A stretch of DNA of 32,000 bases from Candidatus Woesearchaeota archaeon (GTDB lineage: Archaea; Nanobdellota; Nanobdellia; Tiddalikarchaeales; Tiddalikarchaeaceae). The DNA lies in contig CAYWEY010000007.1 of assembly GCA_964457955.1 (NCBI GenBank), forward strand, positions 8,783 to 40,782, read 5' to 3'. A model generated the notes under the pieces. The model did not search any database. It was not told the origin of the DNA and was given only the letters and a program-made list of their open reading frames with translations. Positions 7,002 to 23,342 of this stretch are shown one piece after another; within the stretch, counting starts at the first letter, position 1, and each line of letters starts with the position of its first letter. The position numbers and the translations under genes were made by a program.

Positions 7002-7009
7002 TTTATAAA
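7002..7009 (+). promoter_or_regulatory. TATA box (TTTATAAA) upstream of tbp
   Basis: Located about 42 nt upstream of the TTG start. The predicted short leader would contain the GGTGAT Shine-Dalgarno-like element at 7037-7042. Confidence 0.4.
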
Positions 7010-7047
7010 CGTTTAGTTCTTTTCTTTATAAACATTGGTGATTAAAT

Positions 7048-7587: not shown

Positions 7588-7595
7588 AAAAAAAA

Positions 7596-7615
7596 TTTTT
7601 TTCTATTTTTTTTTT
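7596..7615 (+). terminator. Oligo-T terminator region after tbp
   Basis: The stop codon is followed by A10, then T7, CTA and T10 (TTTTTTTCTATTTTTTTTTT). Oligo-T tracts are the known archaeal termination signal. Confidence 0.5.
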
Positions 7616-7669
7616 GTTACTGTAAACTAGTTAGAAATGTTTTAATAAAAACACTGTAAACAAATTATT

Positions 7670-9043
7670 ATGAGCAGAGTATTAATAACTGGCGCAGCCG
7701 GTCAAACAAGCATATCTTTAATAAAACAGTTAATAAGTGAAGGTTATGAACCAATAGCTACAGATATTAAGGAAAAACCAGAATTATTAGAAGAATTAGG
7801 AACACCATATATAAGAGCAGATCTTACGAAAACAAAAGAATTGGAAGGAATAATAGAATACGCACCATATGATGGAGTAATTCATACAGCAGCAATAGTT
7901 GCACCATTAGTAAGAATAATCCATCATTATGAAGTGAATACAAGAGGTTCTCAGAACTTGTTCACTCTTCTTTCAAAAGAAGGAGTATTGTCAGAAAATG
8001 CTAAAGTAATCAATACAGCAACTGCTTCAGAATATAATTCTTTCAGAATAGTAAAAAATTTTTTTGGTTGGAAAAAAGAATATCATCCTGTTCCTGTTGA
8101 AGGAGCGGATGAGGATGAGCAGCCAATAGGTTGGATGGGAGGGCCTTTCAAGTCATACTGTGAATCAAAACTTTGGCAGGAATTATTAGGACACGAATTT
8201 AATGGTAAAGAAGAGGAAGAGATTAAGCAGATGTTGTCAGACCCAAGATATTATGATAAGTATAAAGAATACGTGGGACCAATAGAAAATAGTGAACTTC
8301 CAATAATTACTATAAGACCAGGACTTGTTTACTCACCCCATGTGACAGAACTCACAGGAGACTTACTTAACATGGTTGCATGCGGTTTTGGAAGAAGCCT
8401 TAGTTGTTTAATGCCTGACTTCCCTACAGGATTCGTCAGTGCAGATAATGTGGCGAGTATAGAAAAGTTCCTTTTAGAGCAGGATAATGATGAAGTTGTT
8501 GGACAAGTATATAATGCTGCAGACGATGCTCCAATAGGTTTCGCGGAATTATCAGAATTAGTGGGTGAAGCATTAGACAAGCCTTACAAATCAGAAATTC
8601 CTGACAGTGTGAAGATGCAGGAGTTAATAATGTACAGTAAATTATTCAACAGCAATAAGATGAAATTTATGATAAAAATAGCGATGGATGGACTTCATAT
8701 TCCAGTATTATTAGTGCTTACGGACATATTAGGAAATCATCATTTTAGTATTAATAAATTAAAAGATTTAGGATGGAAACCTGAAGGAAATGTTGTTGAA
8801 GAAATAGGTGATGTAGCAAGAGAAATGTATGAAGAAGGAAGGATTGGAGGATACACACCAGGACAGGAAAGAATTAATGACATGATAGGACAATTCTTAA
8901 ACCAGTTCGTGACAACCAAGTACATAGATGACAAAGAACTGGCGGTTAAGAATAAGAAAGTAGGTTGCAGAAGGAAATATAAAAAAATACATACAAAATA
9001 CGTGGCGCAGTTAAATGCTTGGAAAGAACATAAAAAGAGATAA
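7670..9043 (+). CDS. NAD(P)-dependent epimerase/dehydratase-family protein (extended SDR) with insertions and a basic C-terminal tail
   Basis: N-terminal Rossmann VLITGAAGQTSISLIKQL. Catalytic YxxxK (YCESK). At 457 aa it is much longer than the usual ~320 aa. Lys/Arg-rich tail (KKVGCRRKYKKIHTKY...KEHKKR). Confidence 0.8.
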   Translation: MSRVLITGAAGQTSISLIKQLISEGYEPIATDIKEKPELLEELGTPYIRADLTKTKELEGIIEYAPYDGVIHTAAIVAPLVRIIHHYEVNTRGSQNLFTLLSKEGVLSENAKVINTATASEYNSFRIVKNFFGWKKEYHPVPVEGADEDEQPIGWMGGPFKSYCESKLWQELLGHEFNGKEEEEIKQMLSDPRYYDKYKEYVGPIENSELPIITIRPGLVYSPHVTELTGDLLNMVACGFGRSLSCLMPDFPTGFVSADNVASIEKFLLEQDNDEVVGQVYNAADDAPIGFAELSELVGEALDKPYKSEIPDSVKMQELIMYSKLFNSNKMKFMIKIAMDGLHIPVLLVLTDILGNHHFSINKLKDLGWKPEGNVVEEIGDVAREMYEEGRIGGYTPGQERINDMIGQFLNQFVTTKYIDDKELAVKNKKVGCRRKYKKIHTKYVAQLNAWKEHKKR

Positions 9044-9046
9044 TTA

Positions 9047-9054
9047 TTTTTTTT
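9047..9054 (+). terminator. Oligo-T (T8) tract just after the SDR gene stop
   Basis: TAATTATTTTTTTTAA lies immediately downstream of the stop at 9041-9043. Confidence 0.4.
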
Positions 9055-9116
9055 AATATATGTTTTGTATTGAATAAATAAATTTAAGAATAGGTTTTTT
9101 TATATAATATTAATAA

Positions 9117-11153
9117 ATGAAAGTAGATGATGTTTCTGAAATTCGCGAACTCTTCCTCGAGTTCATGGATAAGGTGTATAAGAAAGAATTAGGTGAAGCT
9201 ATAAGTAAAGGAGAAAATTTCTTAATCATTGATTTCCAGAATATGGATAAGTTCAATCAGGAACTTGGTAACTTATTAATTGATTATCCTAACAAGATTA
9301 TTGAAGTCTTTGAAGACTCTTTGCAGAAAGAGCATGGTTTCAAGAGTTTTTACGTAAGATTCTCAAACCTGCCTGACTCGTGCTTGGTAAGAATAAGCAA
9401 TATTCGTAAGAAGCATTTAGAAAAATTCTTGTATATTGAGGGAATAGTAAGACAATCAAGCGATGTGCGTCCAATGTGCACATTAATAATATATAAGTGC
9501 TTACAATGCGAGCAAAAAATAAGTATTCCCCAGGAGATGAAAATTATTAAGAAACCCAAGAGGTGTCCTCACTGCGGGAAGAGAGGTCCTTTTGAAGAGG
9601 AGAAAAAGAAATTAGTTGATACTCAGCGTTTAATAATTGAAGAATGTCCTGAAAACCTGGAAGGGGGGAATCAGCCGAGAAGGATTAATATATTTTTAAG
9701 AAATGATTTGGTTGACCCAAGCATAGTTAAGAAATCAAGTCCGGGTTCAAAAGTAAGAATTGTGGGTGTTGTTCACTCATTTGCAAAAAGAATTCCTGCG
9801 CAGAGAGCAAAATCAACACTTTTTGACTTATACGTGGAGGCAAACTTTATTAAACCAATACAACAGGATTTTGATGATATTAATATAACAGAAGAAGATA
9901 TTGAAGAAATAGAATTATTATCCCAAGATCCCCAGATTTTTGACAAATTTGTTAGAAGTGTTGCTCCAACAATAAAAGGAAGAAACTATATCAAGCAGGC
10001 TATGATTCTCCAGATGTTCGGGGGTGTGAGGAAGGAGAGGGGGGATGGAACCGCAACCAGGGGAGATATTCATGTACTATTAATAGGAGATCCGGGTACG
10101 GGTAAGAGTCAGTTAGTTAAGAGTATGGGGTCTGTATGTCCAAAAGCGCGTTATGTGAGCGGTAAGGGAACAACAGGTGCTGGACTGACAGCAACAGTGG
10201 TGAGGGATGATTTCTTAAGAGGATGGGCTTTGGAAGCAGGAGCACTTGTTCTTGCTCATAAAGGATTATTGTGTGTTGACGAGATTGATAAAATGAGTGA
10301 TGAAGACCGTTCAGCAATGCACGAAGCTATGGAGCAGCAGCAAGTGAGTATAAGTAAAGCTAATGTTCAGGCAGTTTTGAATTGTCAGACTACACTACTT
10401 GCAGCAGCAAACCCGGAGTACGGCCGTTTTGACAGTTATAAACCTATTTCTGAACAAATTGATATGCCAGTTACTCTCATAAGCCGTTTCGACCTAATAT
10501 TCCCAGTTAGGGACATTCCTGACAGGGCCAAGGATACAGAATTAGCTGAGCACATGCTTAAAGGACACAAAGAACCGGATTCTCATCAACCAATGATTCC
10601 TTACGAGTTCATAAGAAAATATGTGAGTTATGCTAAGAAAAACATACGTCCAAAACTAACTAATAAAGCCATAAAATATATTAAGGACTTTTTTGTAAAC
10701 TTAAGGAATAAAGAAATCTTGTCAGCAGATGATTCACGCCCCGTTCCTATAACACCAAGACAGTTGGAAGCAATGGTTCGATTGGCTGAAGCAAACGCGA
10801 GGCTTCATTTAAGGAAAAAAGTATTAAAAGAGGATGCTAAGAGAAGTATTAGTTTAATGAAGAACTACCTGCATCGTTTAGGTGTTGATCCTGATACTGG
10901 AGAAATAGATATTGACAGAGTAGTAAGTGGAGTAACGAGCAGTCAGAGAAGCAAGATTCATGAAATGTTTGAAATAATTAAAGAACTTGAATCAGCCTTT
11001 GGAGGCAATATTCCTATAGAAGAAATTATAAAGGAAGCCGAATCTAGAGGTATTGAGGATATGAAAGCAAAAGAAACTATTGATAAGATGAAAAGAGCTG
11101 GAGAAATTTTTGAACCAAGACCAGGCATATTTAGGAGGACGAATTCAAAATGA
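9117..11153 (+). CDS. mcm: MCM replicative helicase
   Basis: C4 zinc motif (CLQCEQ...CPHCG), Walker A GDPGTGKSQL, Walker B LCVDEIDKM, sensor-1 AAANP, arginine finger SRFDLIF, sensor-2 PITPRQLEAMVRLAEA. No intein. Confidence 0.95.
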   Translation: MKVDDVSEIRELFLEFMDKVYKKELGEAISKGENFLIIDFQNMDKFNQELGNLLIDYPNKIIEVFEDSLQKEHGFKSFYVRFSNLPDSCLVRISNIRKKHLEKFLYIEGIVRQSSDVRPMCTLIIYKCLQCEQKISIPQEMKIIKKPKRCPHCGKRGPFEEEKKKLVDTQRLIIEECPENLEGGNQPRRINIFLRNDLVDPSIVKKSSPGSKVRIVGVVHSFAKRIPAQRAKSTLFDLYVEANFIKPIQQDFDDINITEEDIEEIELLSQDPQIFDKFVRSVAPTIKGRNYIKQAMILQMFGGVRKERGDGTATRGDIHVLLIGDPGTGKSQLVKSMGSVCPKARYVSGKGTTGAGLTATVVRDDFLRGWALEAGALVLAHKGLLCVDEIDKMSDEDRSAMHEAMEQQQVSISKANVQAVLNCQTTLLAAANPEYGRFDSYKPISEQIDMPVTLISRFDLIFPVRDIPDRAKDTELAEHMLKGHKEPDSHQPMIPYEFIRKYVSYAKKNIRPKLTNKAIKYIKDFFVNLRNKEILSADDSRPVPITPRQLEAMVRLAEANARLHLRKKVLKEDAKRSISLMKNYLHRLGVDPDTGEIDIDRVVSGVTSSQRSKIHEMFEIIKELESAFGGNIPIEEIIKEAESRGIEDMKAKETIDKMKRAGEIFEPRPGIFRRTNSK

Positions 11154-11815
11154 GCAATGATTATAAAAGACTAACAGCATTTAAATCAAATATTAAGAAA
11201 ATAACAGATTCAGAAATGATTTCTGAAGAAGACAGTCCTGATTATATAAAAATAAGTGATTTAAGGATTGCAAGAGTACGGATTATTGGAACAATCGTTA
11301 GTAAGAGAGTTAATTCTGAAAGAACTTATGCTTACTTAGTTGTTGATGATGGTACAGAAACAATAAGAATAAAAGCATGGAAAGATGATGTGGATAAATT
11401 GGAAAAACCTGTTGTTGGAGACATTATAGAATTAGTGGGCAGAGTGAGAGAATGGGATGATGAAAGATACCTTACTTGTGAAATAATAAAGATAATAAAT
11501 AATCCTAATCACTGGTTATTACATAAGTACGAACTATTATTAAGTGATGAAAAAGTGGAGAGAATAACTGAAAAAGTGAAGACAGGTGATGCCAGAGAAG
11601 TTGAGGGAAAAAAATCAGTAGAGGAAGAACTGGAGAACAAAATTATTAAGATTATAAAAAACAGTGATGTGGGTAGAGGAGTGAGTATGAAATTATTAAC
11701 TGAAGAAACAGGAAAAGATGAGAAAAATATTAGGCCTGTTTTGAAAAATCTTTTAAATGACGGAATAATTTATGAACCCACAAAACACAATTATAAGTTT
11801 TTAGAGGTTGAATAA
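11150..11815 (+). CDS. RPA32/Stn1-like protein: single OB fold plus C-terminal winged helix
   Basis: OB pattern VRIIGTIVSK...YAYLVVDDGTETIRIKAW...GDIIELVGRVREWDDERYL, followed by NNPNHWLLHKYELL. C-terminal winged-helix-like KIIKNSDVGRGVSMKLL...IRPVLKNLLNDGIIYEPTKHNYKF resembles the RPA32C pattern (..L.NEGHIYST.DD.HFK). ATGA overlap with the mcm stop, and AGGAGG at 11133-11138. Confidence 0.7.
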   Translation: MSNDYKRLTAFKSNIKKITDSEMISEEDSPDYIKISDLRIARVRIIGTIVSKRVNSERTYAYLVVDDGTETIRIKAWKDDVDKLEKPVVGDIIELVGRVREWDDERYLTCEIIKIINNPNHWLLHKYELLLSDEKVERITEKVKTGDAREVEGKKSVEEELENKIIKIIKNSDVGRGVSMKLLTEETGKDEKNIRPVLKNLLNDGIIYEPTKHNYKFLEVE

Positions 11816-11820
11816 AAAAA

Positions 11821-12225
11821 ATGAAGAGTTATAAAAGTTTATTAAAAAGAGCTGAAGAAATGCTTCCTGAACAAAGCAAGGAAGAAGCAAGATTCAATGT
11901 TCCAAGAGTAAAGGGAAGAATTCAGGGAAAAAGTACTAGAATAACTAATTTTAAGAAAATATCTGATTATGTGGCGAGAAATCCCAAACTACTTCTTAAA
12001 TACTTGTCAAAAGAACTTGCAACAAAAGGATACATGGATGGTAATACAGCAGTTTTTAAAGGAGTTTTTAAATCATACAAGCTTAATGAAAAAATAAAGA
12101 GTTTTGTTGATGAGTACGTTAAGTGCAGGGAATGTGGAAAACCAGATACAAGAGTTAAGAAGCAGGATAGGATACAATTCATTAAGTGCATGGCGTGCGG
12201 AGCAAAATATCCTGTGAAAATATGA
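11821..12225 (+). CDS. eif2b: Translation initiation factor aIF2 beta subunit
   Basis: 134 aa. YKSLLKRAEEMLPE N-terminus, FNVPRVKG, C-terminal zinc ribbon CRECGKPDT...CMACGA. Starts 5 nt after the preceding gene. Confidence 0.9.
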   Translation: MKSYKSLLKRAEEMLPEQSKEEARFNVPRVKGRIQGKSTRITNFKKISDYVARNPKLLLKYLSKELATKGYMDGNTAVFKGVFKSYKLNEKIKSFVDEYVKCRECGKPDTRVKKQDRIQFIKCMACGAKYPVKI

Positions 12226-12521
12226 TTCTTAAAACTCATAAATCATTAAAAGATTATGTTGTTGCTGCATGTGATAAGAGATTATTAGGCAAGAAAATAA
12301 TTGATGAAGAAAAAGATATAGAAATAACTATTAATAAGAATTTTTATGGGGGAAGAAAGTGCACGCAGGAAGAATTAGTGGAAGAAATGAAGAAAGCGAC
12401 AATAGTGAATCTTATTGGAGAAAAAACAGTGAGTACTGCAATAAAATACGAATTCATAAATAAGGATTCAGTTATAAGGATTAATAATGTTCCGCATGCT
12501 CAGATTATTAGGATGCTTTGA
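12222..12521 (+). CDS. DUF424-family protein
   Basis: Pattern VVAACDKRLLGK...FYGG...NLIGEKTV...INNVPHAQIIRM matches the archaeal DUF424 family, which often follows aIF2-beta. I use the ATG at 12222, which gives an ATGA overlap with the aIF2-beta stop, instead of the track start at 12186. Confidence 0.75.
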   Translation: MILKTHKSLKDYVVAACDKRLLGKKIIDEEKDIEITINKNFYGGRKCTQEELVEEMKKATIVNLIGEKTVSTAIKYEFINKDSVIRINNVPHAQIIRML

Positions 12522-12750
12522 AAAATCATCATTTTTATATTAGATTCTTTCTTTAAATATTCATAATATTTTTTTTCCCCCTTCTTTCATAATAATTATT
12601 TATTACATGCACTTTTATTCTTAACTGAATCTATCCCATAAAGAGTTTTCCTGCACCATTATTTAATTAAATAATCCATATGATTTTTCAAAAAACCAGC
12701 TTCTTTATCCTTTTTTTTTCAAGCATTTTAAGAATTGACTTCTTCAATAA

Positions 12751-13245
12751 TTACCATGGTTCTTTCTTAACACCCATCTTATGCCCTATAATGTTTGCTG
12801 TGCGGTGAATAATTGGAGTGATTATGATAAGAGTAAAGAACGTAATCCAAGAATAAGGTGTTACTATTCTCGCAAGTATTAGTGCTCCTATCATGAAGTC
12901 AATCATGTCAAGAAATCCTGCTTTAGCACCTCTCTTTATTCCTTTCCTTCTCTTAATAAAACTGCCAGCCATATCACCAAGCATTGCTCCCAGACCAATA
13001 AGTGAAAAACTCCATAAATGAATATTGTTCTGCACTATTCTTTTTAGCACTACTCCTGTAATAGTGGAGACTAAGACTGCGAAGAATAATCCTTCCCAAG
13101 TCTTCCCATCTCCCAGTAATCGTTTGCCGCGCCATTTTTTTCCAAAATCAATAGGGTGCTTTTTTAAACTAATAAGGAAGGGTGGTGCTCCGTTCGCAAA
13201 ATAAGCAGGTATTCCGATAAGGATTATTTCTGAAAAAAAACTCAT
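12751..13245 (-). CDS. carS: CDP-archaeol synthase (DUF46/CarS family)
   Basis: 164-aa polytopic membrane protein. Motifs AYFANGAPPF, PIDFGKKWRGKRLLGDGKTWEG, GDMAGSFIKRRKGIKRGAKAGFLDMIDF. Confidence 0.85.
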   Translation of the reverse strand: MSFFSEIILIGIPAYFANGAPPFLISLKKHPIDFGKKWRGKRLLGDGKTWEGLFFAVLVSTITGVVLKRIVQNNIHLWSFSLIGLGAMLGDMAGSFIKRRKGIKRGAKAGFLDMIDFMIGALILARIVTPYSWITFFTLIIITPIIHRTANIIGHKMGVKKEPW

Positions 13246-13312
13246 TATTTAAAGAATTATTTCTGTATAATTAAAAATGTTTTTAAACAATTCAATAATT
13301 ATTTTAGAATAC

Positions 13313-13897
13313 ATGATACTAAGCAGGATAAGAAAATGGTTCCATAAAGCAGTGGATCCTTTAATAAATTTCTTGGTTTTTTTAAAAATTACTCCAAACA
13401 TGGTTACAACTTCTGCTTTGCTCTTCTTATTCCCAACACTGTACTTCATAATGAATAAGAATACTTTCTGGGGAGGAATATTTATGGGAATAACATCAGT
13501 TATTGATGCTGTTGATGGAGCAGTAGCGGACAAAGTAGGTACGACCCGTTTCGGAGATTTTTATGATGCAGTGATTGACAGATTAGTTGAAGGAACTTTT
13601 TTTGTAGCAATCAGTTTAGGATTCCCTGAATACACTTATCTGTGTTTTTTAGCATTTCTTTTCAGTTACATGGTTAGTTATGTTGGTGCACGTGCAGAAG
13701 TATGGACTATAGGGATTAAGATGAAATATTTAAGTATAGGCAGCAGGGCGGGAAGACTCACCGTTCTTGTAGGCAGTTTAATACTCGGCTACTTAAGGAT
13801 TGGATTAATTATTGTCATAATAATAGCATTAATAGCATTGATTGGAAGAAGTTTTGTAACAATGGTAGTGTTAAGGAAGGCGAAGAAGACGAAATGA
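13313..13897 (+). CDS. CDP-alcohol phosphatidyltransferase family protein (archaetidyl-serine/-inositol-phosphate/-glycerol-phosphate synthase type)
   Basis: Signature D-x2-DG-x2-A-[R]-x7-G-x3-D-x3-D is present as DAVDGAVADKVGTTRFGDFYDAVID, with Asp at the usual Arg position. Multi-TM protein. The start could also be the ATG at 13277; I prefer 13313 (MILSRIRKWFHKAVDPL...ITPNMVT) because it leaves room for divergent promoters. Confidence 0.85.
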   Translation: MILSRIRKWFHKAVDPLINFLVFLKITPNMVTTSALLFLFPTLYFIMNKNTFWGGIFMGITSVIDAVDGAVADKVGTTRFGDFYDAVIDRLVEGTFFVAISLGFPEYTYLCFLAFLFSYMVSYVGARAEVWTIGIKMKYLSIGSRAGRLTVLVGSLILGYLRIGLIIVIIIALIALIGRSFVTMVVLRKAKKTK

Positions 13898-14025
13898 AAT
13901 CAATAATAAGAGACTTAGTATTTATTTATATTGGGTATAAGTTATTAACATCATCTTTCATTCTTTATGGAATGATGATTCTCGGATTCACTCTTTACTT
14001 CAGGATTGGAAAAATAACTGGTTAA
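13894..14025 (+). CDS. Possible 43-aa hydrophobic membrane peptide (below the ORF-track size cutoff)
   Basis: My own translation: MKSIIRDLVFIYIGYKLLTSSFILYGMMILGFTLYFRIGKITG*. Its ATG overlaps the TGA of the phosphatidyltransferase (ATGA at 13894-13897), the same coupling used by bona fide gene pairs in this window. Confidence 0.4.
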   Translation: MKSIIRDLVFIYIGYKLLTSSFILYGMMILGFTLYFRIGKITG

Positions 14026-14031
14026 TAATAC

Positions 14032-14041
14032 TTTTAAATAA
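14032..14041 (+). promoter_or_regulatory. TATA-like box (TTTTAAATAA) upstream of the Dak2-DegV-plsY operon
   Basis: Centred about 26 nt upstream of the ATG at 14063, with no SD in between. This pattern fits a leaderless mRNA. Confidence 0.4.
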
Positions 14042-14062
14042 TTTCTGCTTTGTAAATAAAGT

Positions 14063-14959
14063 ATGGAGATATTAACAACAACTACTTTCAAAAAAATGAT
14101 TTTTGAAACAAAAAATATTATGAACAATAAGAAAGATTATTTGAATTATGTTAATGTCTTCCCAGTACGTGATGGTGATACTGGGGATAATTTGTTAAAA
14201 ACATTTAATAATTCAAGAATAAGCGGGAAGAAATCGCTTAAAGAATTCATGCATGAACTGAAAGAATCATTATTATTAAGCGCAAGAGGGAATAGTGGAG
14301 TAATAATCTCCCAGTTTTATAAAGGATTCTGCGATTATTTAATAAAACAAAAATATGTTGGGTGTAACGAGTTTGCTGAAGCAATAAACAATGGTTGCGA
14401 GTATGCTTATAATGCAGTGAATAATCCTGTTGAAGGAACAATGCTTACAGTGCTGAAAGGAGCGAGTCAGGGAGCGTTCAAAGTATTAGATAAGACTGAA
14501 TCAATAATTGATGTGATGATAGGTTCTTTTGATTCAGCCCAGGAATACTTGAAGAAAACAATGAACATGCTTCCAGTTCTGAAAAAATCAGGAGTGGTTG
14601 ATGCAGGAGGATTAGGTGTTGTTTACATGCTCGGAGCTTGGCTCAGGGCTTTAGGAATAATACCTGAGTACGATCCGAGTATTGAGAATATGATTGTTAA
14701 AGAACAAAAGATGACAATTGAGAAAAAGCACTGCATTAATATTTTGTTAGAGAACTGCTCAGAATATGAAGAAGATGTTAGGAATGTTTTGGAAAAAGAA
14801 GGAGATTCTATTCAAATAATAACAAGCAGAAAATATTTACGAATCCATATTCATTCTGATAATTGTGAAAAGATTAAGAATATTTGTTCTGCTTTCGGAA
14901 AACTAAAAGAATATAAAACAACTAATATGAGAAAACAATATGAAAAAATCAGGAATTAG
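14063..14959 (+). CDS. Dak2-domain protein, FakA/YloV-like (fatty-acid kinase ATP-binding subunit) lacking the C-terminal domain
   Basis: NVFPVRDGDTGDNL and SARGNSGVIISQFYKG (Dak2/DhaL nucleotide-binding motifs). Middle-region pattern KHCINILLENC...EGDSIQIIT...LRIHIHSDNCEKI...TTNMRKQ as in YloV/FakA. 298 aa. Confidence 0.85.
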   Translation: MEILTTTTFKKMIFETKNIMNNKKDYLNYVNVFPVRDGDTGDNLLKTFNNSRISGKKSLKEFMHELKESLLLSARGNSGVIISQFYKGFCDYLIKQKYVGCNEFAEAINNGCEYAYNAVNNPVEGTMLTVLKGASQGAFKVLDKTESIIDVMIGSFDSAQEYLKKTMNMLPVLKKSGVVDAGGLGVVYMLGAWLRALGIIPEYDPSIENMIVKEQKMTIEKKHCINILLENCSEYEEDVRNVLEKEGDSIQIITSRKYLRIHIHSDNCEKIKNICSAFGKLKEYKTTNMRKQYEKIRN

Positions 14960-15752
14960 GATAATTGTTGACAACACAGTTGATTACTTGTCAGGAACAG
15001 ATAAAAACTTTGTCAGTGAAGTTAAGATTCATTTATTCATGAATAACAAAGAAGTGAATCTGGATAAAAAAAGTTTTTACAAAAAAATAAGAAATAATAG
15101 TTTCAGGACAAGTCAGCCAAACCCTGATGATTTCCTGAAAATATATGAAAAGTATAAAGATAAGAAATTAATAGTACTAACACTCACTTCAAAACTAAGC
15201 GGCACGCATAATAGTGCATTAATCGCAAAAAAGAAGAGCAAGAACCAGTATATTTCTGTAATTGATTCAAGAACAACAAGCGCGGGATTAGGAATATTGG
15301 TTAAGAAAGCAACGAGTATGATTAAAGAAGAATATTCTTATGAAGAAATAATAAAAAAGATTAAAAAAATTGTTCCAAAAATAAGAATTTTTTTAGTGCT
15401 TAAAAAACTTAAGTACTTAGTTAGGAGAGGAAGAATTAATAAATCATTAGGTGTATTGGACAATATTGTTCATTTAAAACCAGTAATAGGTTTTTATAAC
15501 GGAGAATTAAAGAGTGCGGGAAAAATGCTGTTATTTGAAAATATTGAGAAAGGATTCTATAATTATATTCATAAAAGAATTCTTAATGCTCAAAAAATAT
15601 ATCTTCTTCATAATAATATGAAGAGAGAAGCAGATTATTTAAAAAAAAGATTCGGAAGAGAGTATGGTGTTGAAGTAATTGATTACTTGAATCCAGCACT
15701 AGGTGTTTATTCAGGACCAGAATGTATTGCAATAGGGTGGATTGAGGAATGA
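14940..15752 (+). CDS. DegV-family fatty-acid-binding protein (FakB-like)
   Basis: IRIIVDNTVDYL, RTSQPNPDDFLKIYEKY, LTLTSKLSGTHNSALIA, VIDSRTTSAGLG, LKKLKYLVRRGRINK, HLKPVIGF, GVYSGPECIAIGW. Overlaps the upstream gene by 20 nt and plsY by ATGA. Confidence 0.9.
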   Translation: MKKSGIRIIVDNTVDYLSGTDKNFVSEVKIHLFMNNKEVNLDKKSFYKKIRNNSFRTSQPNPDDFLKIYEKYKDKKLIVLTLTSKLSGTHNSALIAKKKSKNQYISVIDSRTTSAGLGILVKKATSMIKEEYSYEEIIKKIKKIVPKIRIFLVLKKLKYLVRRGRINKSLGVLDNIVHLKPVIGFYNGELKSAGKMLLFENIEKGFYNYIHKRILNAQKIYLLHNNMKREADYLKKRFGREYGVEVIDYLNPALGVYSGPECIAIGWIEE

Positions 15753-16288
15753 TAATTACTATATTATTAAGCTACTTGATAGGCAGTTTTCCAACAGCAT
15801 ACTTGTTTTATAAAAAAATATTTAATAAAGGCACTGGAAACATGGGTGCTTACAATTTTTTAAAAACCACGAACTCGTATCTTAAAACAAGCATAATACT
15901 GCTTATTGATGTGTTTAAAGGAGTTCTTATCGTGATTCTTTCGCAAACACTTAGTCCAGGACTAAATAGTCTTATTATTGGAGTAGTTTCAGGAATAATA
16001 GGTCATGATTACAGTATATTCGTGAATTTCAAGGGAGGAAAAGGACTTGGTTTAAGTATTGGAGTATTATTATTACTGGAGCCTTTCTTCTTAGTTTACA
16101 TGATTATGATTCTCGGAGTATTATACTTTATTTTCAGAAATAATGTTAAGGCAGGACTTGCGAGCATACCTTTCCTAATAATTCTTTATTTAATAATGAA
16201 TCCCGAGAATTATCCTCTTATTCTTGGAGTAATCAGTGCATTACTAATAGTTCACAAAGACGTGATTAAGATTCTTAATTCTTTTTAA
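15749..16288 (+). CDS. plsY: PlsY-family acyl-phosphate:glycerol-3-phosphate acyltransferase homologue
   Basis: YLIGSFPTAYL, GTGNMGAYN (motif 1), IDVFKG (motif 2), GHDYSIFVNFKGGKGLG (motif 3). 179-aa polytopic membrane protein. Confidence 0.8.
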   Translation: MIITILLSYLIGSFPTAYLFYKKIFNKGTGNMGAYNFLKTTNSYLKTSIILLIDVFKGVLIVILSQTLSPGLNSLIIGVVSGIIGHDYSIFVNFKGGKGLGLSIGVLLLLEPFFLVYMIMILGVLYFIFRNNVKAGLASIPFLIILYLIMNPENYPLILGVISALLIVHKDVIKILNSF

Positions 16289-17201
16289 CACCGCACTTCT
16301 TTAACAACTCATCCCATTCATTATCAACATGTTTTTGTATTCTCTTAATAAACTCTTCATTCTCATCCTTAAATAAGTGTTTAAAACGACCCTGAGTCTC
16401 TAAATATTTCTTAATAGGAATCCTGTTCTTATTATGATAATTAAGTTTGTACTCTCCATCCTCTATCTCGTATAATGGCCAGAAATTAGTCTTCACAGCA
16501 AGTTTGCTTATGTCAATACTCATATCATACTTATGCTTCCATCCTACAGGACAGGGACTGAAAACATTAATGAAAGCAGGTCCTTTTTTACTAAAAGCTT
16601 TCTTTGCTTTATTAATTAAGTCATTCCAGTCATGAACTGCTGCTTGAGCAGCGTAAGGAATATTATGGGCTGCAACAATTTCAGTAATATTCTTCCTGTA
16701 CTCTTTTTTTCCGAAACTCTTCTTTCCCGCAGGACTTGTTGTAGTACTCGCACCGTAAGGAGTTGCACTGCTTCTCTGAATACCCGTATTCATATAAGCT
16801 TCATTATCATAACAAACATATAGAAAATTATGTCCTCTCTCAAGTGCTCCGCTCAAGGACTGGAGCCCAATATCATATGTTCCGCCATCTCCTCCGAAAG
16901 CAACAAAATTAATCTTCTTCTTAATCTTTCCATTCTTTTTTAACGCACGATAAGCTGTTTCAATACCACTTATTGTGGCACCCGCGTTCTCAAAAGCGCT
17001 GTGAATGAAAGGAACATTCCAGCTCGTGTAAGGATAAATAGTTGTAGTAACTTCCATGCAACCAGTTGCAGCACATACAACAACAGGGTCTTCGCTAGCC
17101 CTGAGTATATTCCTCATAATTATTGGAAAAGCGCATCCTGCACAACTCCTGTGTCCCGGATTAATTTTTTCAGGCTTTTCACTTAATTCTTTAAGATTCA
17201 T
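16275..17201 (-). CDS. porB: Pyruvate (2-oxoacid):ferredoxin oxidoreductase beta subunit (TPP-binding)
   Basis: PGHRSCAGCA, GCMEV, and the TPP motif FGGDGGTYDIGLQSL...YDNEAYMNTGIQRS. Last gene of the gamma-delta-alpha-beta order. Confidence 0.9.
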   Translation of the reverse strand: MNLKELSEKPEKINPGHRSCAGCAFPIIMRNILRASEDPVVVCAATGCMEVTTTIYPYTSWNVPFIHSAFENAGATISGIETAYRALKKNGKIKKKINFVAFGGDGGTYDIGLQSLSGALERGHNFLYVCYDNEAYMNTGIQRSSATPYGASTTTSPAGKKSFGKKEYRKNITEIVAAHNIPYAAQAAVHDWNDLINKAKKAFSKKGPAFINVFSPCPVGWKHKYDMSIDISKLAVKTNFWPLYEIEDGEYKLNYHNKNRIPIKKYLETQGRFKHLFKDENEEFIKRIQKHVDNEWDELLKKCGVKKN

Positions 17202-18343
17202 TTTCTCACCCCAATATATTTTTCAGGCTTCTTATTCTTCAGCATCTTATCAAAAACGTTTTTTACGTCTTTTTCAAATAAGTCTCTTCCTCCGAGTCCG
17301 AAAACACAACTATGCACTTCTTTATCCACACTATTCTTTATCTCTGAATAGAGGGGAGGATTAGCACCAAAACTAGTGCTCCTGTCTAATACGCACATAT
17401 TCTTAACATTCTTTAAAGCTTTACCAACTTCTTCGTATGGGAAAGGACGGAACAAACGAATCTTTAATAATCCTACTTTCTTACCTTCTTTTCTCATATT
17501 ATCAACAACATGCTTAGTGATTCCTGCAGCAGTACTCATAGTAACAATAACACAATCAGCATCATCCATCCTGTACTCTTCAAAATAAGGATAATTTCTT
17601 CCAGTTATTTTTGATAATTCTTCACCAATATTCAAATACTCTTTCTTCGCCTTCTCCATTGCCTGAATACGCTGGAATTGTGTTTCAAAATAATAATCCT
17701 GAAGTTCGAGAGGACCCATAGTAACGGGTTTGTCAACATTTAATAAATAATGCTTGGGCTCGTACTCTCCCACGAATTCCTGAACAGTTTTTTCATCAAG
17801 TATTTTCATATTCTGAACACAGAAACTGTTGATAAAACCATCCTGCATAATCATAGCAGGAAGCATGACTTTTTCAGCAAGCTTAATACTTAATAAAGTA
17901 TTGTCATAAACATCCTGAGCATTCTCACTGTACATCTGAATCCATCCAATATCCCTGCAAGCCATACTGTCCGCATGATCACAATGAATATTGATAGGGC
18001 TGCTTAAAGCCCTGTTAACTATGTTCATTACAATAGGAAGACGAGTTCCGCTCGCAACACCAAGTATTTCAAACATTAATGCAAGTCCGGCACTGCTTGT
18101 TGCAGTCATTGCCCTGGCTCCAGCAGCACTCGCTCCAACACAACCACTCATTGCGCTGTGTTCGCTCTCAACAAGAATCATTTCAGTATCAACCTCGCCG
18201 TCAGCAACGAACTGTGTGAAACTCATCATAATATTCGTCTGCGGCGTAATTGGGAAAGCACTCACTACATCAGGATTAATCTGCTTCATCACGTGGGCAG
18301 CAGATTCTGCTCCAGTAAAAATGACTTTTTTCTGACTTATCAT
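17198..18343 (-). CDS. porA: Pyruvate (2-oxoacid):ferredoxin oxidoreductase alpha subunit
   Basis: FTGAESAAHVMKQINPDVVSAFPITPQT, ESEHSAMSGCVGASAAGARAMTATSSAGLALM. ATGA overlaps on both sides. Confidence 0.9.
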   Translation of the reverse strand: MISQKKVIFTGAESAAHVMKQINPDVVSAFPITPQTNIMMSFTQFVADGEVDTEMILVESEHSAMSGCVGASAAGARAMTATSSAGLALMFEILGVASGTRLPIVMNIVNRALSSPINIHCDHADSMACRDIGWIQMYSENAQDVYDNTLLSIKLAEKVMLPAMIMQDGFINSFCVQNMKILDEKTVQEFVGEYEPKHYLLNVDKPVTMGPLELQDYYFETQFQRIQAMEKAKKEYLNIGEELSKITGRNYPYFEEYRMDDADCVIVTMSTAAGITKHVVDNMRKEGKKVGLLKIRLFRPFPYEEVGKALKNVKNMCVLDRSTSFGANPPLYSEIKNSVDKEVHSCVFGLGGRDLFEKDVKNVFDKMLKNKKPEKYIGVRK

Positions 18344-18660
18344 TTCTCGCCCACCCCGTAATTCTCAACCATTCTGATAGCATTAACCGGGCAGATCTTA
18401 GCACATATACCGCATCCTTTACAGTAATCAAGATCAGCATCCTGAATCTGTCCTTTCTTAATTTTTATACAATTCTCAGGGCAGAACATGAAGCATAATA
18501 AGCAATTAGTGCAAGTTTCAGGATTCCTAACTGGTTCGGCACTCTTCCAGTCGCCAGTTCTGTACTCAACACTGCTTCCTGGACTAATGATTGTTCCACC
18601 TATAGGGATTTCTCCAGCACCCATTTTTTTGTCACAATATTCTGATTTTTTCTTCTTCAT
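18340..18660 (-). CDS. porD: Pyruvate:ferredoxin oxidoreductase delta subunit (2x[4Fe-4S] ferredoxin-type)
   Basis: Two cluster motifs, CTNCLLCFMFCP and CKGCGICAKICP. The presence of a delta subunit favours POR/VOR-type enzymes. Confidence 0.9.
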   Translation of the reverse strand: MKKKKSEYCDKKMGAGEIPIGGTIISPGSSVEYRTGDWKSAEPVRNPETCTNCLLCFMFCPENCIKIKKGQIQDADLDYCKGCGICAKICPVNAIRMVENYGVGEK

Positions 18661-19217
18661 TTTATAACAGCCTCTTCAAAAGCTTTCTTAACACCTTTAA
18701 CATTTTTTTCAGCAATCTTTTTACCAAAATGTTCCTTAATAGCTTTATTAAAATTATCTAAATTTATGATATCTTGATTTGTTGCTTTAATAAAAGCACC
18801 AGTAGTAATAAGGTTTGGCTTATTAACATTCATTAAACTAATACTTATTCCTGTAGCATCAACAACACCAACTTTTCCCTTAAAACCAACTTTTTTCCTA
18901 ATTTTTTCAGGGCTTTTGCGAGTGTTTACAATCAGTAAACCATTACTAGCCAAGTCCTGAATAATCTTTTTGCACAATAGTGTTTCATCAATAACAATTA
19001 AAGCATCAGGAGTGGTGATAGGGGAGAAAGTCTTAATAATATTCTTACTTATGCGCGCAAAAGTCCTCATAGGTGCTCCAGCGCGCTCAGGCCCGTATTC
19101 AGGAAAAGCCTGTACGTAATCATCCATCATGAAACCAGCTTCAGCAATTAATTGAGCGCCTGTCTTAGCACCCTGTCCTCCTCTTCCATGCATTCTTATC
19201 TCATAAAAATCACTCAT
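18657..19217 (-). CDS. porG: Pyruvate:ferredoxin oxidoreductase gamma subunit
   Basis: IRMHGRGGQGAKTGAQLIAEA N-terminus. First gene of porGDAB. TTTATAAAAAA box centred about 26 nt upstream. Confidence 0.9.
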   Translation of the reverse strand: MSDFYEIRMHGRGGQGAKTGAQLIAEAGFMMDDYVQAFPEYGPERAGAPMRTFARISKNIIKTFSPITTPDALIVIDETLLCKKIIQDLASNGLLIVNTRKSPEKIRKKVGFKGKVGVVDATGISISLMNVNKPNLITTGAFIKATNQDIINLDNFNKAIKEHFGKKIAEKNVKGVKKAFEEAVIK

Positions 19218-19237
19218 AAAATGATTAATATAATTGG

Positions 19238-19248
19238 TTTATAAAAAA
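19238..19248 (-). promoter_or_regulatory. TATA box upstream of porGDAB
   Basis: The minus strand reads TTTTTTATAAA, centred about 26 nt upstream of the porG ATG (19217). Confidence 0.45.
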
Positions 19249-19257
19249 CTTTTCGAG

Positions 19258-19716
19258 TTATTCTATTAATAACTCACCTAAGTCATAAAATATTTTCTCT
19301 ATATTATTTCCTGTCTTGGCAGAAGTAGGATAATAATTGTCAGGAATTATTTCACGGATTTTTTCAGAATTTATTGTCATCCCTGTTTCCTATAAAAAAT
19401 TCCATGCATTTATTATAATAAACATTGTTCTTGCTTAATTCTCTCCATTCTTCAAGATTATACAATGTTTCTGTTCTTGTTAAGTCAAAGACGTATATCA
19501 CTATATTTGCTCCCTGGAAAAAACTGTCAAGTATGAATCTGAATCTTTTCTGTCCCCCCAAAATCTCATATAGAATAACTAATATGATTGTTATCAATAA
19601 TTTATGGATTTTTTTGTATCTTCATCAAACTTTTTAGTCATGAATCTTTTTATAATAGAAGTTTTTCCTCCAGCACCGTCTCCCGCAATAACTGTTTTGA
19701 AAGTATACTTATTCAT
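19258..19716 (-). pseudogene. Ras/Rab-like small GTPase gene broken by two frameshifts (-1, then +1)
   Basis: My own translation gives three pieces. Piece 1, from ATG 19716, is MNKYTFKTVIAGDGAGGKTSIIKRF...DEDTKKSINY* (G1 P-loop). Piece 2, 19597-19364 in another frame, is ...LYEILGGQKRF (G3-like)...VIYVFDLT...IGNRDD (G4-like). Piece 3, 19380-19258 and back in the first frame, is ...YYPTSAKTGNNIEKIFYDLGELLIE* (G5 SAK). The first shift maps to 19597-19621, which contains a T7/A7 run at 19609-19615. The second maps to 19367-19389. Confidence 0.7.
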
Positions 19717-19795
19717 TGAATTTTTTAAAAAATTCAATATCTAAATTTTTTTTATATTAGTAATATTTTTAAACAAGTTATTTTTTTTTGATATT

Positions 19796-20305
19796 ATGGG
19801 CAGGAAGAATCATAAACCACCTCATAAAATGCCTCGCAAAGGCAGAAAGAAGCAGAGGAATATAAATTCACAGTCTTTTCAGATTAAGGAATTACCTTCA
19901 TATAATGATATTGTCAAGTATTTTTTTAATTATGGTGAAATCAAACATTATAAATTAAGCACTCATGCTTATCTTGAAAGTTCTGATTATATTATTAAAT
20001 CAAAACACTCAATACCTAGTTCAAGTATTGTTTATAGAGTTTTTGACAAGTATCAAAAAGTAGTTCCTGAACAAGTTAAGTTTTCTGTAAGACATTCTTC
20101 TTATTATGTTGATACCTTAATATTGAACAAATTAAAAAATAAGGGTTCTTATTATGAATTTGTTGGATTTGCTTACTTTAATAATCATGAATGGAGTCTG
20201 AAGCACAGAAAGAACAATATTTTTGTTCCCGGACTTGTTAAGACAGAAAAAAGTTTTAAAAGTCTGGAAGAAACACTTGGTTTTGTTAAACAAAAAATAC
20301 AATAA
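19796..20305 (+). CDS. Hypothetical protein with highly basic N-terminus (169 aa)
   Basis: ATG-started ORF, MGRKNHKPPHKMPRKGRKKQRN.... No family recognised. Divergent from the GTPase remnant across an AT-rich 79-bp spacer. Confidence 0.6.
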   Translation: MGRKNHKPPHKMPRKGRKKQRNINSQSFQIKELPSYNDIVKYFFNYGEIKHYKLSTHAYLESSDYIIKSKHSIPSSSIVYRVFDKYQKVVPEQVKFSVRHSSYYVDTLILNKLKNKGSYYEFVGFAYFNNHEWSLKHRKNNIFVPGLVKTEKSFKSLEETLGFVKQKIQ

Positions 20306-20799: not shown

Positions 20800-22137
20800 T
20801 TACTTAAGCAAATCCTTTGCTTTAAAAACTGTTATTGTATTCGTTGTTTTCTTAATAAAGAATCCTGCAACAAAAACAATTGTTTCATCCTTTTTTATTA
20901 AATTATTTTTCACACACATCCTGGTTGTTTTAAATAATTCATCAGTATCATACTCTTCCATTCCTTCATAATATTGAGGCATTACACCATAATTTATCAT
21001 CAACTGTTTTTCAACAATTTTTTCAGGAGTGATAGCAATAATATTCTTTTTTGGTTTAAAACGGCTCAGCATTCTTGCAGTATGTCCTGAACGAGTCAGG
21101 CAGATAATCTGGGCATCAAGTTCGTCAGCAACACCAAAAGCATAATCAGTTATAATATTCTCAACATCGATTTTTTCAAGCTCGTAATGAGGCATTTCAG
21201 CCAGACTCTCAGTATTAAGACATATCTTATTCATCTTATTCACAACAATCACCGGATAATCACCAATACTTGTTTCTCCTGAAAGCATAAGACAATCAGC
21301 ACCATCCAGTATTGCATTAGCAACATCACTCGTCTCCGCTCTTGAAGGATTCTTACTCTTAATCATTGACTCCATCATCTGGGTTGCAACAATAACAGGC
21401 TCGCCAATAATATTGCATTTCTTAATAATCTTTTTCTGAATCATCGGAACTTTCTCACTAGGCATCTCAACACCCAAGTCTCCGCGCGCAATCATGACTC
21501 CATGAGCTTCTTCCAATATTTCATTGAAATTATCCACTCCTTCCTTGTTCTCAATCTTTGCAATAACTCTGATACCAGTATTTTTTAACTTCTTCTTAAC
21601 AAGTCTTAAATCATCAGCACTGCTCGTGTAAGAAACTCCTATGAATTCAATATTATTCTTTACAGCAAACTTGATTCCTTTTTCATCCTTTTCAGTAAGA
21701 ACAGGAAGTTCTATATCAATATTTCTGAAAATAATGCTCTTATTCTTCCTTAACTCACCATTATTCATCATCTTAACACGGACAGAGTCTTTCTTAACAT
21801 CAATAATTTCTCCATTATTCATTCCGTCATTAAATAATACTTCAACACCTTTGCTTAATTTGTCATAAATATCAACTGATAAAGAGAACTCAATAACATC
21901 ATCTTCTTCAAAAACAATATCCTCATTAACAGTCCTTACTTCAGGCCCCTGAGTATCAAGAAGTATTGGAATATCGGAAACATTTCTGACATTCTCTATT
22001 ATTTTTTCATACTGCTCAAAATCACCATGGGATAAGTTAATCCTTGCAGAATTCATGCCATTATTAACCATTTTTTTAATAATATTCTCGTCCATACTGC
22101 TGGGTCCCAGAGTACATATGATTTTTGTCTTCTTCAT
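20800..22137 (-). CDS. pyk: Pyruvate kinase
   Basis: KTKIICTLGPSS, RINLSHG, DTQGPEVR, IAKIENKEG, MIARGDLGVEMP, VATQMMESM, LSGETSIG. Its ATG overlaps the TGA of the upstream TrxR-like gene. Confidence 0.95.
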   Translation of the reverse strand: MKKTKIICTLGPSSMDENIIKKMVNNGMNSARINLSHGDFEQYEKIIENVRNVSDIPILLDTQGPEVRTVNEDIVFEEDDVIEFSLSVDIYDKLSKGVEVLFNDGMNNGEIIDVKKDSVRVKMMNNGELRKNKSIIFRNIDIELPVLTEKDEKGIKFAVKNNIEFIGVSYTSSADDLRLVKKKLKNTGIRVIAKIENKEGVDNFNEILEEAHGVMIARGDLGVEMPSEKVPMIQKKIIKKCNIIGEPVIVATQMMESMIKSKNPSRAETSDVANAILDGADCLMLSGETSIGDYPVIVVNKMNKICLNTESLAEMPHYELEKIDVENIITDYAFGVADELDAQIICLTRSGHTARMLSRFKPKKNIIAITPEKIVEKQLMINYGVMPQYYEGMEEYDTDELFKTTRMCVKNNLIKKDETIVFVAGFFIKKTTNTITVFKAKDLLK

Positions 22138-23006
22138 TTTCTCCTCCTCTTAATAATATTCTGTCCAGCAACAGCGCCTTCACTAACTGCTTTACACACT
22201 TGAAGTAATCCTCCTGTGCAGTCGCCTGCAGCCCAAACATTATTAGTATTAGTCTCCTGATTATCATCCACTTTTATGAAATAATTCTTAATTTCTATTC
22301 CCAATTCTCTTGCAAAATCAATGCTTGAAGCAGAACCAAGGAATACGAAAACACCATCAGTCCTGAATTCTTCACCATCAATGATTAAAGACTCTACTTT
22401 TTTATCTCCTTTTATTTCACTCACTTCTTTATCAATGATTTCAATATCATTCTCTTTTAATTCAGTCATCAAATCCTCACTAATATTCATTTCTTTACTG
22501 TTTGTTATTAGAGTAATATTCTGAGTAAAATCAATTAATTCCAGTGCTTTATCAGCACCATAATCCTCATTACCGATAACAACAACTTTCTTGTTTTTAA
22601 AGAAGAAAGCGTCACACATTGTGCAGTAACTCACTCCTTTACCAACAAATTTTTCCTCATTCTTAATACCACTTTTCTTAATTTCAACACCTGTAGCAAT
22701 TAACAAAAACTTTGATTCATAATTTTCTTTTTTTGTCTTAACAATAAATAATTCATTTTCTTTCTTAACACTCAATACTTCATCATTAATTATTTCAGCA
22801 CCACAATCCTCTGCCTGCTCAGTGCCTTTAACCATTAATTTTTTTCCGCTGATATTATTGTTTCCGAAAAAATTCTTGATAATAACTTCATCTTTCCATA
22901 TATCATTCTCTTTACCTATTATTAGAGTGCTTAATCCTGCAATACTTGTGTATATTCCTGCACTAAGTCCTGCAGGTCCCCGTCCTATTATAATAACTTC
23001 ATACAT
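22134..23006 (-). CDS. trxB: Thioredoxin-reductase-family flavoprotein with a degenerate NADPH-binding site
   Basis: FAD motif VIIIGRGPAGLSAG, redox-active CTMC in the position of CATC, C-terminal WAAGDCTGG. The positions of GGGNSA and HRRxxxR read VVVIGNEDYGADKA and LITNSKEMNIS. Confidence 0.85.
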   Translation of the reverse strand: MYEVIIIGRGPAGLSAGIYTSIAGLSTLIIGKENDIWKDEVIIKNFFGNNNISGKKLMVKGTEQAEDCGAEIINDEVLSVKKENELFIVKTKKENYESKFLLIATGVEIKKSGIKNEEKFVGKGVSYCTMCDAFFFKNKKVVVIGNEDYGADKALELIDFTQNITLITNSKEMNISEDLMTELKENDIEIIDKEVSEIKGDKKVESLIIDGEEFRTDGVFVFLGSASSIDFARELGIEIKNYFIKVDDNQETNTNNVWAAGDCTGGLLQVCKAVSEGAVAGQNIIKRRRK

Positions 23007-23035
23007 ATTAAAAAAATATGAAAAGAATTATTAAA

Positions 23036-23278: not shown

Positions 23279-23342
23279 AATAAAAGAATATTTTCCTATC
23301 TTTTAATAAGTTTTTTATACTAATAACTTTAATCAATTCTTG

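Follow-up and report, generated by a model that had tools for sequence, protein, structure and literature searches.

A predicted minimal fatty-acid kinase linked to PlsY-family acyltransferases in an archaeal gene cassette

The stretch of DNA studied here, a window of 32,000 nucleotides (nt) from a Candidatus Woesearchaeota archaeon, a DPANN-type organism of small genome (GenBank assembly GCA_964457955.1, contig CAYWEY010000007.1, positions 8,783 to 40,782), carries three overlapping genes for a short FakA-type protein, a DegV protein and a divergent PlsY-family protein. In our assessment, this gene cassette probably encodes a minimal two-component fatty-acid kinase that is coupled to an acyl-phosphate-dependent PlsY-family acyltransferase, and it would thereby form an archaeal cassette supplying the PlsY donor. 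It is a variant of a known pathway and not a new kind of system. A first-pass annotation of this DNA had already proposed a Fak-to-PlsY relay of acyl-phosphate, and this continues to be the best reading of the cassette. The proposal draws on what is directly observed, namely the structure of the genes, their family and fold membership, the conservation of catalytic and donor-site residues, and the conserved linkage of the genes. The three genes are:

14063..14959, plus strand: gene 1, short FakA, 298 amino acids (aa), with Dak2 at residues 34-193 and the FakA middle/L domain at residues 222-295
14940..15752, plus strand: gene 2, DegV/FakB-like fatty-acid-binding protein, 270 aa, Pfam DegV
15749..16288, plus strand: gene 3, PlsY-family membrane acyltransferase, a divergent 'type A' paralogue, 179 aa, Pfam G3P_acyltransf

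From the sequence, genes 1 and 2 overlap by 20 nt, the ATG of gene 2 being located within the end of gene 1, and genes 2 and 3 share an ATGA overlap (4 nt), with a Shine-Dalgarno-like GAGGA just upstream of the start of gene 3. The three genes are one translationally coupled unit. The open reading frames (ORFs), the two overlaps and all peptide strings quoted in the first-pass annotation were found exactly as it gave them, and its assignment of the proteins to the Dak2, DegV and PlsY families is borne out by profile searches, in which all of them exceed the curated Pfam cut-offs.

The route that we infer, in its substrates, its direct docking of DegV on the kinase, its acceptor and its product, is the following. 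The DegV protein would bind free fatty acid, with Thr57, Ser87, Arg165 and Tyr257 holding the carboxylate, and the short FakA would phosphorylate this fatty acid with ATP to acyl-phosphate, the Dak2 domain contributing the Mg-ATP aspartates and the L domain a Cys/His/His cluster. Because a FakA_C docking domain is absent, DegV would have to engage the kinase directly, probably in the manner of DhaK and DhaL, and with DegV in the place of FakA_C. The PlsY-family membrane protein would then take acyl-phosphate into its phosphate hole (His92 and GGKG; PlsY residues are numbered after Aquifex PlsY unless marked as those of the window, by an alignment anchored on a canonical Heimdall PlsY) and transfer the acyl chain to a membrane acceptor. 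By default, this acceptor would be glycerol phosphate and the product a lyso-phosphatidic-acid-like ester lipid, with an acceptor pocket that appears remodelled in this lineage. The cassette may in this way supply acyl-phosphate for archaeal PlsY from scavenged fatty acids in organisms that are without PlsX and probably without acyl carrier protein (ACP).

PlsY and PlsC homologues are known from DPANN, Marine Group II/III and Asgard bins and have been treated as transfers from bacteria. Reviews describe archaea that possess only PlsY of the PlsX/PlsY pair and leave its function unsettled, and the same acyl-phosphate gap has been raised for bacteria of the candidate phyla radiation. In favour of the relay, PlsY of bacteria can use the acyl-phosphate that FakAB generates, and it takes glycerol-1-phosphate as well as glycerol-3-phosphate as acceptor. 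A PlsY-Fak operon offers a testable answer to this question of the donor: free fatty acids, and not de novo synthesis. The formation of ester lipids in DPANN and Heimdall-type archaea thereby becomes an experimental question that is open to the published FakAB-PlsY coupled assay. We found no literature that links Fak or DegV to archaeal PlsY, in a search whose coverage left out most subscription journals, and papers on Tiddalikarchaeum and on DPANN protein families make no mention of the cassette genes. The published surveys of archaeal PlsY and PlsC (Villanueva 2017; Coleman 2019; Manoharan 2019) report PlsY genes amid ether-lipid enzymes, as is the case here; these studies treat PlsY in isolation, whereas we find it consistently linked to a minimal Fak. 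Archaeal lipoprotein acylation was considered as a role of the cassette and rejected, the known AliA family being unrelated.

A short FakA and its gene trio in archaea

Gene 1 matches Pfam Dak2 (1.4e-29) and FakA-like_M (6.5e-14), both above the curated cut-offs, and it aligns with the solved FakA structures 7w7h/7rm7. Its match to the YloV profile TIGR03599 covers profile positions 1-299 of 530 only, no FakA_C domain was detected in it by profile search, and the protein ends 3 residues past the L domain. The description of the Fak system as complete in the first-pass annotation can consequently not be upheld, as the kinase is without its C-terminal FakB-binding domain. The short form is a family trait and not a truncation, since our database search returned a whole series of homologues of 290-316 aa. 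These comprise proteins from Nanoarchaeota and Ca. Tiddalikarchaeum with 51-60% identity, a large Heimdallarchaeota/Asgard set (about 314 aa, 31-34% identity), and further short forms from Diapherotrites and others. With bacterial FakA, archaeal short FakAs share only 31-37% identity.

Residues D37, D39, T40, G41, the GNSG loop (G76-G79), C224, H262 and H264 are invariant among 13 aligned archaeal short FakAs. D37 and D39 are the counterparts of the Mg/ATP aspartates in streptococcal FakA, while C224, H262 and H264 correspond to the catalytic Cys240, His282 and His284 of S. aureus FakA_L, where mutation of any of the three lowers activity about 100-fold. These conserved catalytic residues predict that gene 1 acts as a kinase on FakB-bound fatty acid. 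FakA_C is the docking site of FakB; in vitro, the FakA_NL construct still has kinase activity although the C-domain has been removed, with the Michaelis constant for FakB shifting from 0.09 to 0.99 uM (11-fold). A natural Fak architecture without a C-domain bears on the disputed role of FakA_C. We also considered and rejected a DhaK/DhaL dihydroxyacetone kinase; the match to the DhaK-family profile is negligible (7e-4).

A short FakA, a DegV protein and one to three PlsY proteins are encoded within 4 kb and on the same strand at 11/11 distinct archaeal-type loci, which have unrelated neighbourhoods and span Nanoarchaeia, Diapherotrites and Heimdall-type Asgard archaea (L002 and L003 counted as one; A and B denote PlsY types):

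Window (this contig): FakA-DegV-PlsY(A)
L002/L003 (Nanoarchaeota GCA_016931175.1): FakA-DegV-PlsY plus a second, 'type B' PlsY
L004 (Ca. Tiddalikarchaeum GCA_902385255.1): FakA-DegV-PlsY(B)
L005 (235-kb JGI contig): FakA-DegV-PlsY(A)
L006 (GCA_054030655.1): PlsY-PlsY-FakA-DegV, beside UbiA and RuBisCO
L089 (GCA_053995075.1): FakA-DegV-PlsY x3
L091 (Diapherotrites GCA_013154145.1): PlsY-FakA-DegV
L093 (metagenome contig): FakA-DegV-PlsY(A)-PlsY(B)
L007, L090, L092 (three Heimdall-type loci): FakA, DegV and PlsY with spacers

The bacterial control consisted of the matches listed from a scan of GTDB genomes with the short-FakA alignment, all of them bacterial full-length FakAs; among these 79 loci, DegV adjoins in 21 and PlsY in 4. 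One bacterial short form of FakA that we examined lies beside recG, without DegV or PlsY. A rough, midpoint-rooted neighbour-joining tree of the N+L region gives clades of their own to the forms from Nanoarchaeia, to those from Asgard archaea and to a third archaeal-type group, and nests the bacterial forms of roughly 300 aa among full-length bacterial FakAs, although its lack of support values and its biased sampling weaken the case that we build on it. A recent import of the cassette from a Firmicute is not supported by these sequence comparisons, and the cassette is most likely an archaeal module of DPANN and Heimdall-type lineages and not a recent bacterial insertion. The notion of a bacterial-type operon inside an archaeal genome, with which the first-pass annotation had headed its entry, suggests a sporadic import and needs correction: the trio is conserved in archaea, and its FakA falls into archaeal clades.

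Two of the Heimdall-type loci deserve a separate remark. In the source records, the proteins of L090 and L092 carry the labels Bathyarchaeia (P0068) and Zixibacteria (P0049). Their neighbourhoods match that of Heimdallarchaeota L007 (AP_endonuc_2, GT87, DUF87/HAS-barrel, Metallophos), which suggests mis-binned or mislabelled Asgard contigs.

Compared with the FakA/FakB systems of Firmicutes (S. aureus, S. suis, B. subtilis YloV/DegV), the window kinase has in common the Dak2 domain and the Cys and His-x-His of the L/M domain, and gene 2 shares the DegV fold with a Thr/Ser/Arg carboxylate site; acyl-phosphate is the donor for PlsY. There are also differences. FakA of Firmicutes has about 550 aa and includes FakA_C, whereas that of the window has about 300 aa without it. 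The bacterial fakA gene is usually located by recG with fakB and plsY elsewhere, whereas the window genes overlap and form one operon with PlsY. Furthermore, the FakB His is a Tyr in the DegV protein of the window, and the host is an archaeon.

Donor and acceptor sites of the PlsY-family protein

Gene 3 is a member of Pfam G3P_acyltransf (PF02660; 4.9e-24, 85.7 bits vs a cut-off of 24.1). Its AlphaFold2 model has a pLDDT of 90.9 and a pTM of 0.83, and a Foldseek search with this model retrieved only Aquifex PlsY (5XJ5-5XJ8; TM 0.75-0.78, E about 1e-6), the next matches having E above 1. At the level of a predicted structure, the seven-helix PlsY fold of gene 3 is thus confirmed. The field defines the PlsY motifs as residues 34-45, 100-107 and 177-189 of Aquifex PlsY. 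The first-pass annotation had credited gene 3 with all three motifs, which in its usage differ from those of the field; by the field's definition only motif 2 is preserved intact, motif 1 being altered (GTGNMGAYNFLK) and motif 3, at the extreme C-terminus, degenerate (HKDVIKILNSF vs HRxNIxRL).

In Aquifex PlsY, the acyl-phosphate site is built from motif 2, the GGKG phosphate hole, together with His92 and Thr41. The pocket for glycerol-3-phosphate (G3P) comprises a phosphate clamp of Ser35, Arg45, Lys104 and Asn180, to which Ser142 and His177 are added. With the solved Aquifex enzyme (5XJ5-5XJ9), gene 3 has the fold, motif 2, His92, Asp59, Asn37/42 and His177 in common. Its donor site is intact (N37, N42, D59, H92 and GGKG), with residues that do not vary within its clade, and besides His177 also Lys104 is retained; in the numbering of the window protein, H86 (His92) and G96-G97-K98-G99 (GGKG) are invariant in the type A clade. 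In contrast, the acceptor site carries S35T, R45K, N180V and S142G, and T41Y is present as well. Across the ten members of the type A clade, position 35 is S/T/D, 45 is K/I/A/M/L, 180 is V/F, 41 is Y/F and 142 is G. This clade is narrow, fast-evolving and Nanoarchaeia-specific, and it is also small: when 1.84 billion representatives were searched exhaustively, only 3 sequences scored above 118 bits, against a general PlsY background of <=95 bits. The 150 nearest PlsY representatives are heterogeneous (R45 in 91/147) and provide a weak canonical control, for which the published conservation across 7,288 PlsY sequences is the better reference; this heterogeneity indicates that PF02660 holds several non-canonical subfamilies.

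Not all PlsY proteins of the cassettes have diverged in this manner. Those beside Heimdall-type cassettes and the first of the three in L089 are fully canonical (S35, R45, K104, H177, N180), and in L089 (6811-8656) two divergent copies come after the canonical one. Tandem copies, two to three per cassette, occur also in L002 (7693-8815), L006 (4910-5991) and L093 (7687-8818), and the 'type B' paralogue of Nanoarchaeia lacks even His177 (LKYATE). The proposal of the first-pass annotation that the archaeon makes ester-linked lysophosphatidate is consequently only in part sustained: the acyl-phosphate site is kept, but since three of the four G3P clamp residues are lost, lysophosphatidate is not assured as the product of the window PlsY.

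Several observations weigh against the relay of acyl-phosphate that we favour. The archaeal members are known from sequence and models only. Gene 1 stays under the FakA/YloV equivalog cut-offs (TIGR03599, 252.9 vs 396.1 bits; NF038248, 179.9 vs 975 bits), gene 2 under that for FakB1 (NF038249, 83.5 vs 350 bits) and gene 3 under that for PlsY (TIGR00023, 80.1 vs 137.2 bits). In gene 3, 3/4 residues of the G3P phosphate clamp and Ser142 are changed, and the corresponding single substitutions cost Aquifex PlsY more than 80-90% of its activity (S35T has 17% left, R45K loses >90% and N180A >92%). At the position of FakB His264/266, the DegV proteins of the window (Tyr257) and of Tiddalikarchaeum have Tyr, and the 9 other archaeal DegVs have His; this replacement of His266 also counts against our proposal, although the Tyr could still hydrogen-bond. 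Moreover, profile searches of the 32-kb window revealed no gpsA or glpK for the supply of G3P, no plsC for a second acylation and no second PlsY paralogue.

It is possible, if somewhat doubtful, that the same kinase front end serves a type A PlsY that acylates an acceptor other than G3P, such as glycerol-1-phosphate (G1P), an ether lysolipid like geranylgeranylglyceryl phosphate (GGGP) or a more hydrophobic lipid alcohol taken from a host, which would yield a hybrid or remodelled lipid. Conservation extends to the donor site and not to the acceptor clamp, with a pocket that is more hydrophobic, and sometimes acidic, across a clade that is both narrow and fast-evolving. The presence of two to three PlsY genes per cassette in L002, L006, L089 and L093 suggests a division of labour, and the window cassette abuts genes for CarS and a CDP-alcohol transferase. 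The argument is, however, one from sequence, and as DPANN proteins evolve fast, the pocket may have been remodelled around the same substrate; the retention of His177 and Lys104 and the location of gpsA near the cassette in relatives likewise speak against another acceptor. Mixed ester/ether lipids might be the product of a PlsY subfamily whose acceptor pocket has changed, and such lipids would be relevant to the salvage of host lipids by archaea with small genomes and to models of how membranes evolved. In its most far-reaching form, the idea would be that of an archaeal minimal fatty-acid kinase dedicated to PlsY, with clamp-less Nanoarchaeia paralogues acylating a non-G3P acceptor by means of acyl-phosphate, so that scavenged fatty acids would enter hybrid ester/ether membrane lipids without ACP, coenzyme A thioesters, PlsX or PlsC. 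We put this forward tentatively and consider it rather doubtful.

A canonical bacterial FakA/FakB/PlsY pathway, horizontally acquired in a Firmicutes-like form and making sn-1-acyl-glycerol-3-phosphate as in bacteria, appears unlikely to us. The three family assignments do hold, the PlsY genes of archaea are interpreted in published trees as having come from bacteria by transfer, gpsA is found near the cassette in two relatives (L002, L093), and the PlsY copies of the Heimdall-type and L089 cassettes keep all five canonical residues. Yet the FakA is devoid of the C-domain that defines bacterial FakA, the archaeal forms, at 31-37% identity to bacterial FakA, occupy clades of their own, the S35T, R45K, N180V and S142G exchanges of the window PlsY include changes that are severely damaging in the Aquifex enzyme, and the window has no gpsA at the syntenic site.

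The DegV partner and its proposed engagement with the kinase

Profile searches place gene 2 in the DegV family, and we regard it as a DegV of FakB type. The match to Pfam DegV (8.7e-53) extends over positions 3-279 of 280 and reaches 179.9 bits vs a cut-off of 27, and TIGR00762 is matched with 182.2 bits vs 99.7. Among 25 solved DegV/FakB relatives, the best is S. aureus FakB2 (4x9x). Thr, Ser, Arg and His of FakB hold the carboxylate of the fatty acid; T57, S87 and R165 of gene 2 equal the carboxylate-binding Thr61, Ser93 and Arg170 and are invariant in 11/11 archaeal DegVs.

DhaK/DhaL provides a parallel for the pair, as a Dak2-type nucleotide subunit (DhaL) and a substrate binder with EDD fold (DhaK) are mirrored by the short FakA and DegV; here, in contrast, the partner is a DegV lipid binder, and there is an extra L domain with Cys/His/His. 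A second parallel comes from metagenomes. Our scan with a single protein as query gave no match, while that with the clade alignment recovered one close relative (L093) and many single-ORF fusions, with about 290 further residues after the N+L region. Custom profile hidden Markov models (HMMs) classed about 66 loci as Dak2-FakA_M-DegV fusions of about 590-600 aa. As the custom FakA_C HMM is crude and could mislabel C-domains as DegV, two fusions were checked with Pfam; both consist of Dak2, FakA-like_M and a full-length DegV (204-250 bits) without FakA_C. These confirmed examples are L094 (Dak2 + FakA_M + DegV at 5896-7704) and L123, which is GC-rich. The fusions thus agree with the window in their three domains and the succession of these, likewise without FakA_C, but as one polypeptide, and none of the roughly 66 fusion loci has a PlsY gene within 4 kb of the fusion gene. 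As Rosetta-stone evidence, the existence of Dak2-M-DegV fusions argues that the N+L module pairs directly with DegV, and it may be seen as an echo of the DhaL/DhaK analogy that has been drawn in the literature for FakA_N/FakA_C.

Separate from these are two reversed fusions of about 780 aa, at L164 (5083-7437) and L168 (5056-7443), in which DegV precedes Dak2 and the C-terminal region has a hydrophobic segment without a FakA_M match. A PlsY-family gene overlaps the 3' end of the reversed fusion in both, an arrangement that looks like a third wiring of the same components.

That gene 2 is instead the split-off C-domain of a split or frameshifted fakA, with the true FakB encoded elsewhere, is very improbable. 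FakA_C and DegV share a fold, the two genes overlap, and gene 2 does have a weak FakA_C match (43 bits, 3.5e-11); this is however far exceeded by the full-length DegV match at 180 bits, and gene 2 retains the Arg that FakA_C lacks. In addition, the two genes are separate in 11/11 loci, with junctions anywhere between an overlap of 38 nt and a gap of 104 nt. We likewise considered and rejected the possibility that genes 1 and 2 are a fusion gene broken by a frameshift.

Genomic setting of the cassette

Adjacent to the cassette are the following features:

14032..14041, plus strand: TATA-like box TTTTAAATAA, on positional evidence only a candidate archaeal promoter from which the three genes would be transcribed with almost no leader
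13277..13897, plus strand: CDP-alcohol phosphatidyltransferase, archaetidylinositol-phosphate-synthase-like, Pfam CDP-OH_P_transf 2.3e-10
12751..13245, minus strand: CarS, CDP-archaeol synthase, divergently transcribed, Pfam CarS-like 2.7e-32

CarS exceeds the NF003114 cut-off (166.1 bits, over 148), and the CDP-alcohol phosphatidyltransferase remains below that of NF040950 (106.6 bits, under 180). The upstream box of the first-pass annotation is present, as the octamer TTTAAATA at 14033-14040 lies 23-30 nt before the ATG of gene 1 (14063); but in a window as AT-rich as this one (33% GC) its frequency does not exceed chance, with 7 copies found against 9 expected. Directly 5' of the candidate promoter is an ORF for a strongly hydrophobic protein of 43 aa (13894-14025, plus strand), which is joined through an ATGA overlap to the 3' end of the gene for the CDP-alcohol phosphatidyltransferase; no homologue of it was detected at the other cassette loci.

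Archaeal genes are distributed across the contig. Profile searches identified the large and small subunits of RFC, TBP, MCM, RPA, aIF2-beta, DUF424, CarS, a four-subunit POR and aIF5B, in full agreement with the archaeal flanks that had been described before. The earlier claim of a location next to carS is true for the window, but neither CarS nor the CDP-alcohol phosphatidyltransferase was found beside the cassette at the 10 other archaeal loci. The neighbourhood of CarS and CDP-alcohol-transferase lipid genes is specific to this genome. The window block from the ABC (ATP-binding cassette) transporter and aIF5B to Pyr_redox_2 and pyruvate kinase (20800-30209) is syntenic with L002 and L093, which are the closest two among the relatives that have long context. 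There, the cassette directly follows aIF5B, and gpsA comes after pyruvate kinase, a few kb downstream of the cassette. As the cassette is placed after aIF5B in these relatives but next to CarS in the window, it appears to have moved as a unit. At the corresponding position of the window, after pyruvate kinase, there is no gpsA; a fragmented GTPase-like gene and an ORF without assignment are found instead.

Over window positions 8657-20189, a range that covers both borders of the operon, the Logan assembly of SRR7048218 agrees with the window at 100% identity. The contig is genuinely archaeal, as had been assumed, and a mis-assembly is very unlikely, given that a different assembler reproduces both borders and that the trio recurs in other archaeal contigs. 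A bacterial fragment joined chimerically into an archaeal contig, for which nothing speaks beyond the mainly bacterial distribution of the three families, is effectively refuted by this identity, by cassette genes whose GC content (0.28-0.32) fits the window mean of 0.33 in a region of even GC, by the 14-nt overlap of the 3' end of gene 3 with the convergent POR beta gene, and by the position of the trio among archaeal genes in 10 other contigs.

A few minor features of the window remain to be recorded. At 19258-19737 (minus strand), consecutive ORFs of 47, 77 and 40 aa read like a frameshifted small GTPase of the Ras/Rab type (GDGAGGKT ... DLT ... TSAK), which may be a pseudogene or reflect sequencing errors; the site is that of gpsA in L002 and L093. 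The mechanically called ORF of DUF424 starts at a GTG and overlaps aIF2-beta by 40 nt (12186-12225), but on the identical Logan contig the gene was called with a later start (99 aa), which makes this overlap probably an artefact of ORF calling. Sizeable ORFs without a Pfam match are located at 3-800, 3282-3848, 19796-20305, 23340-24698 and 24684-25826. Finally, the window encodes a PqqD-like small protein (2943-3275, minus strand) and a B12-binding radical SAM enzyme (30248-31645, plus strand).

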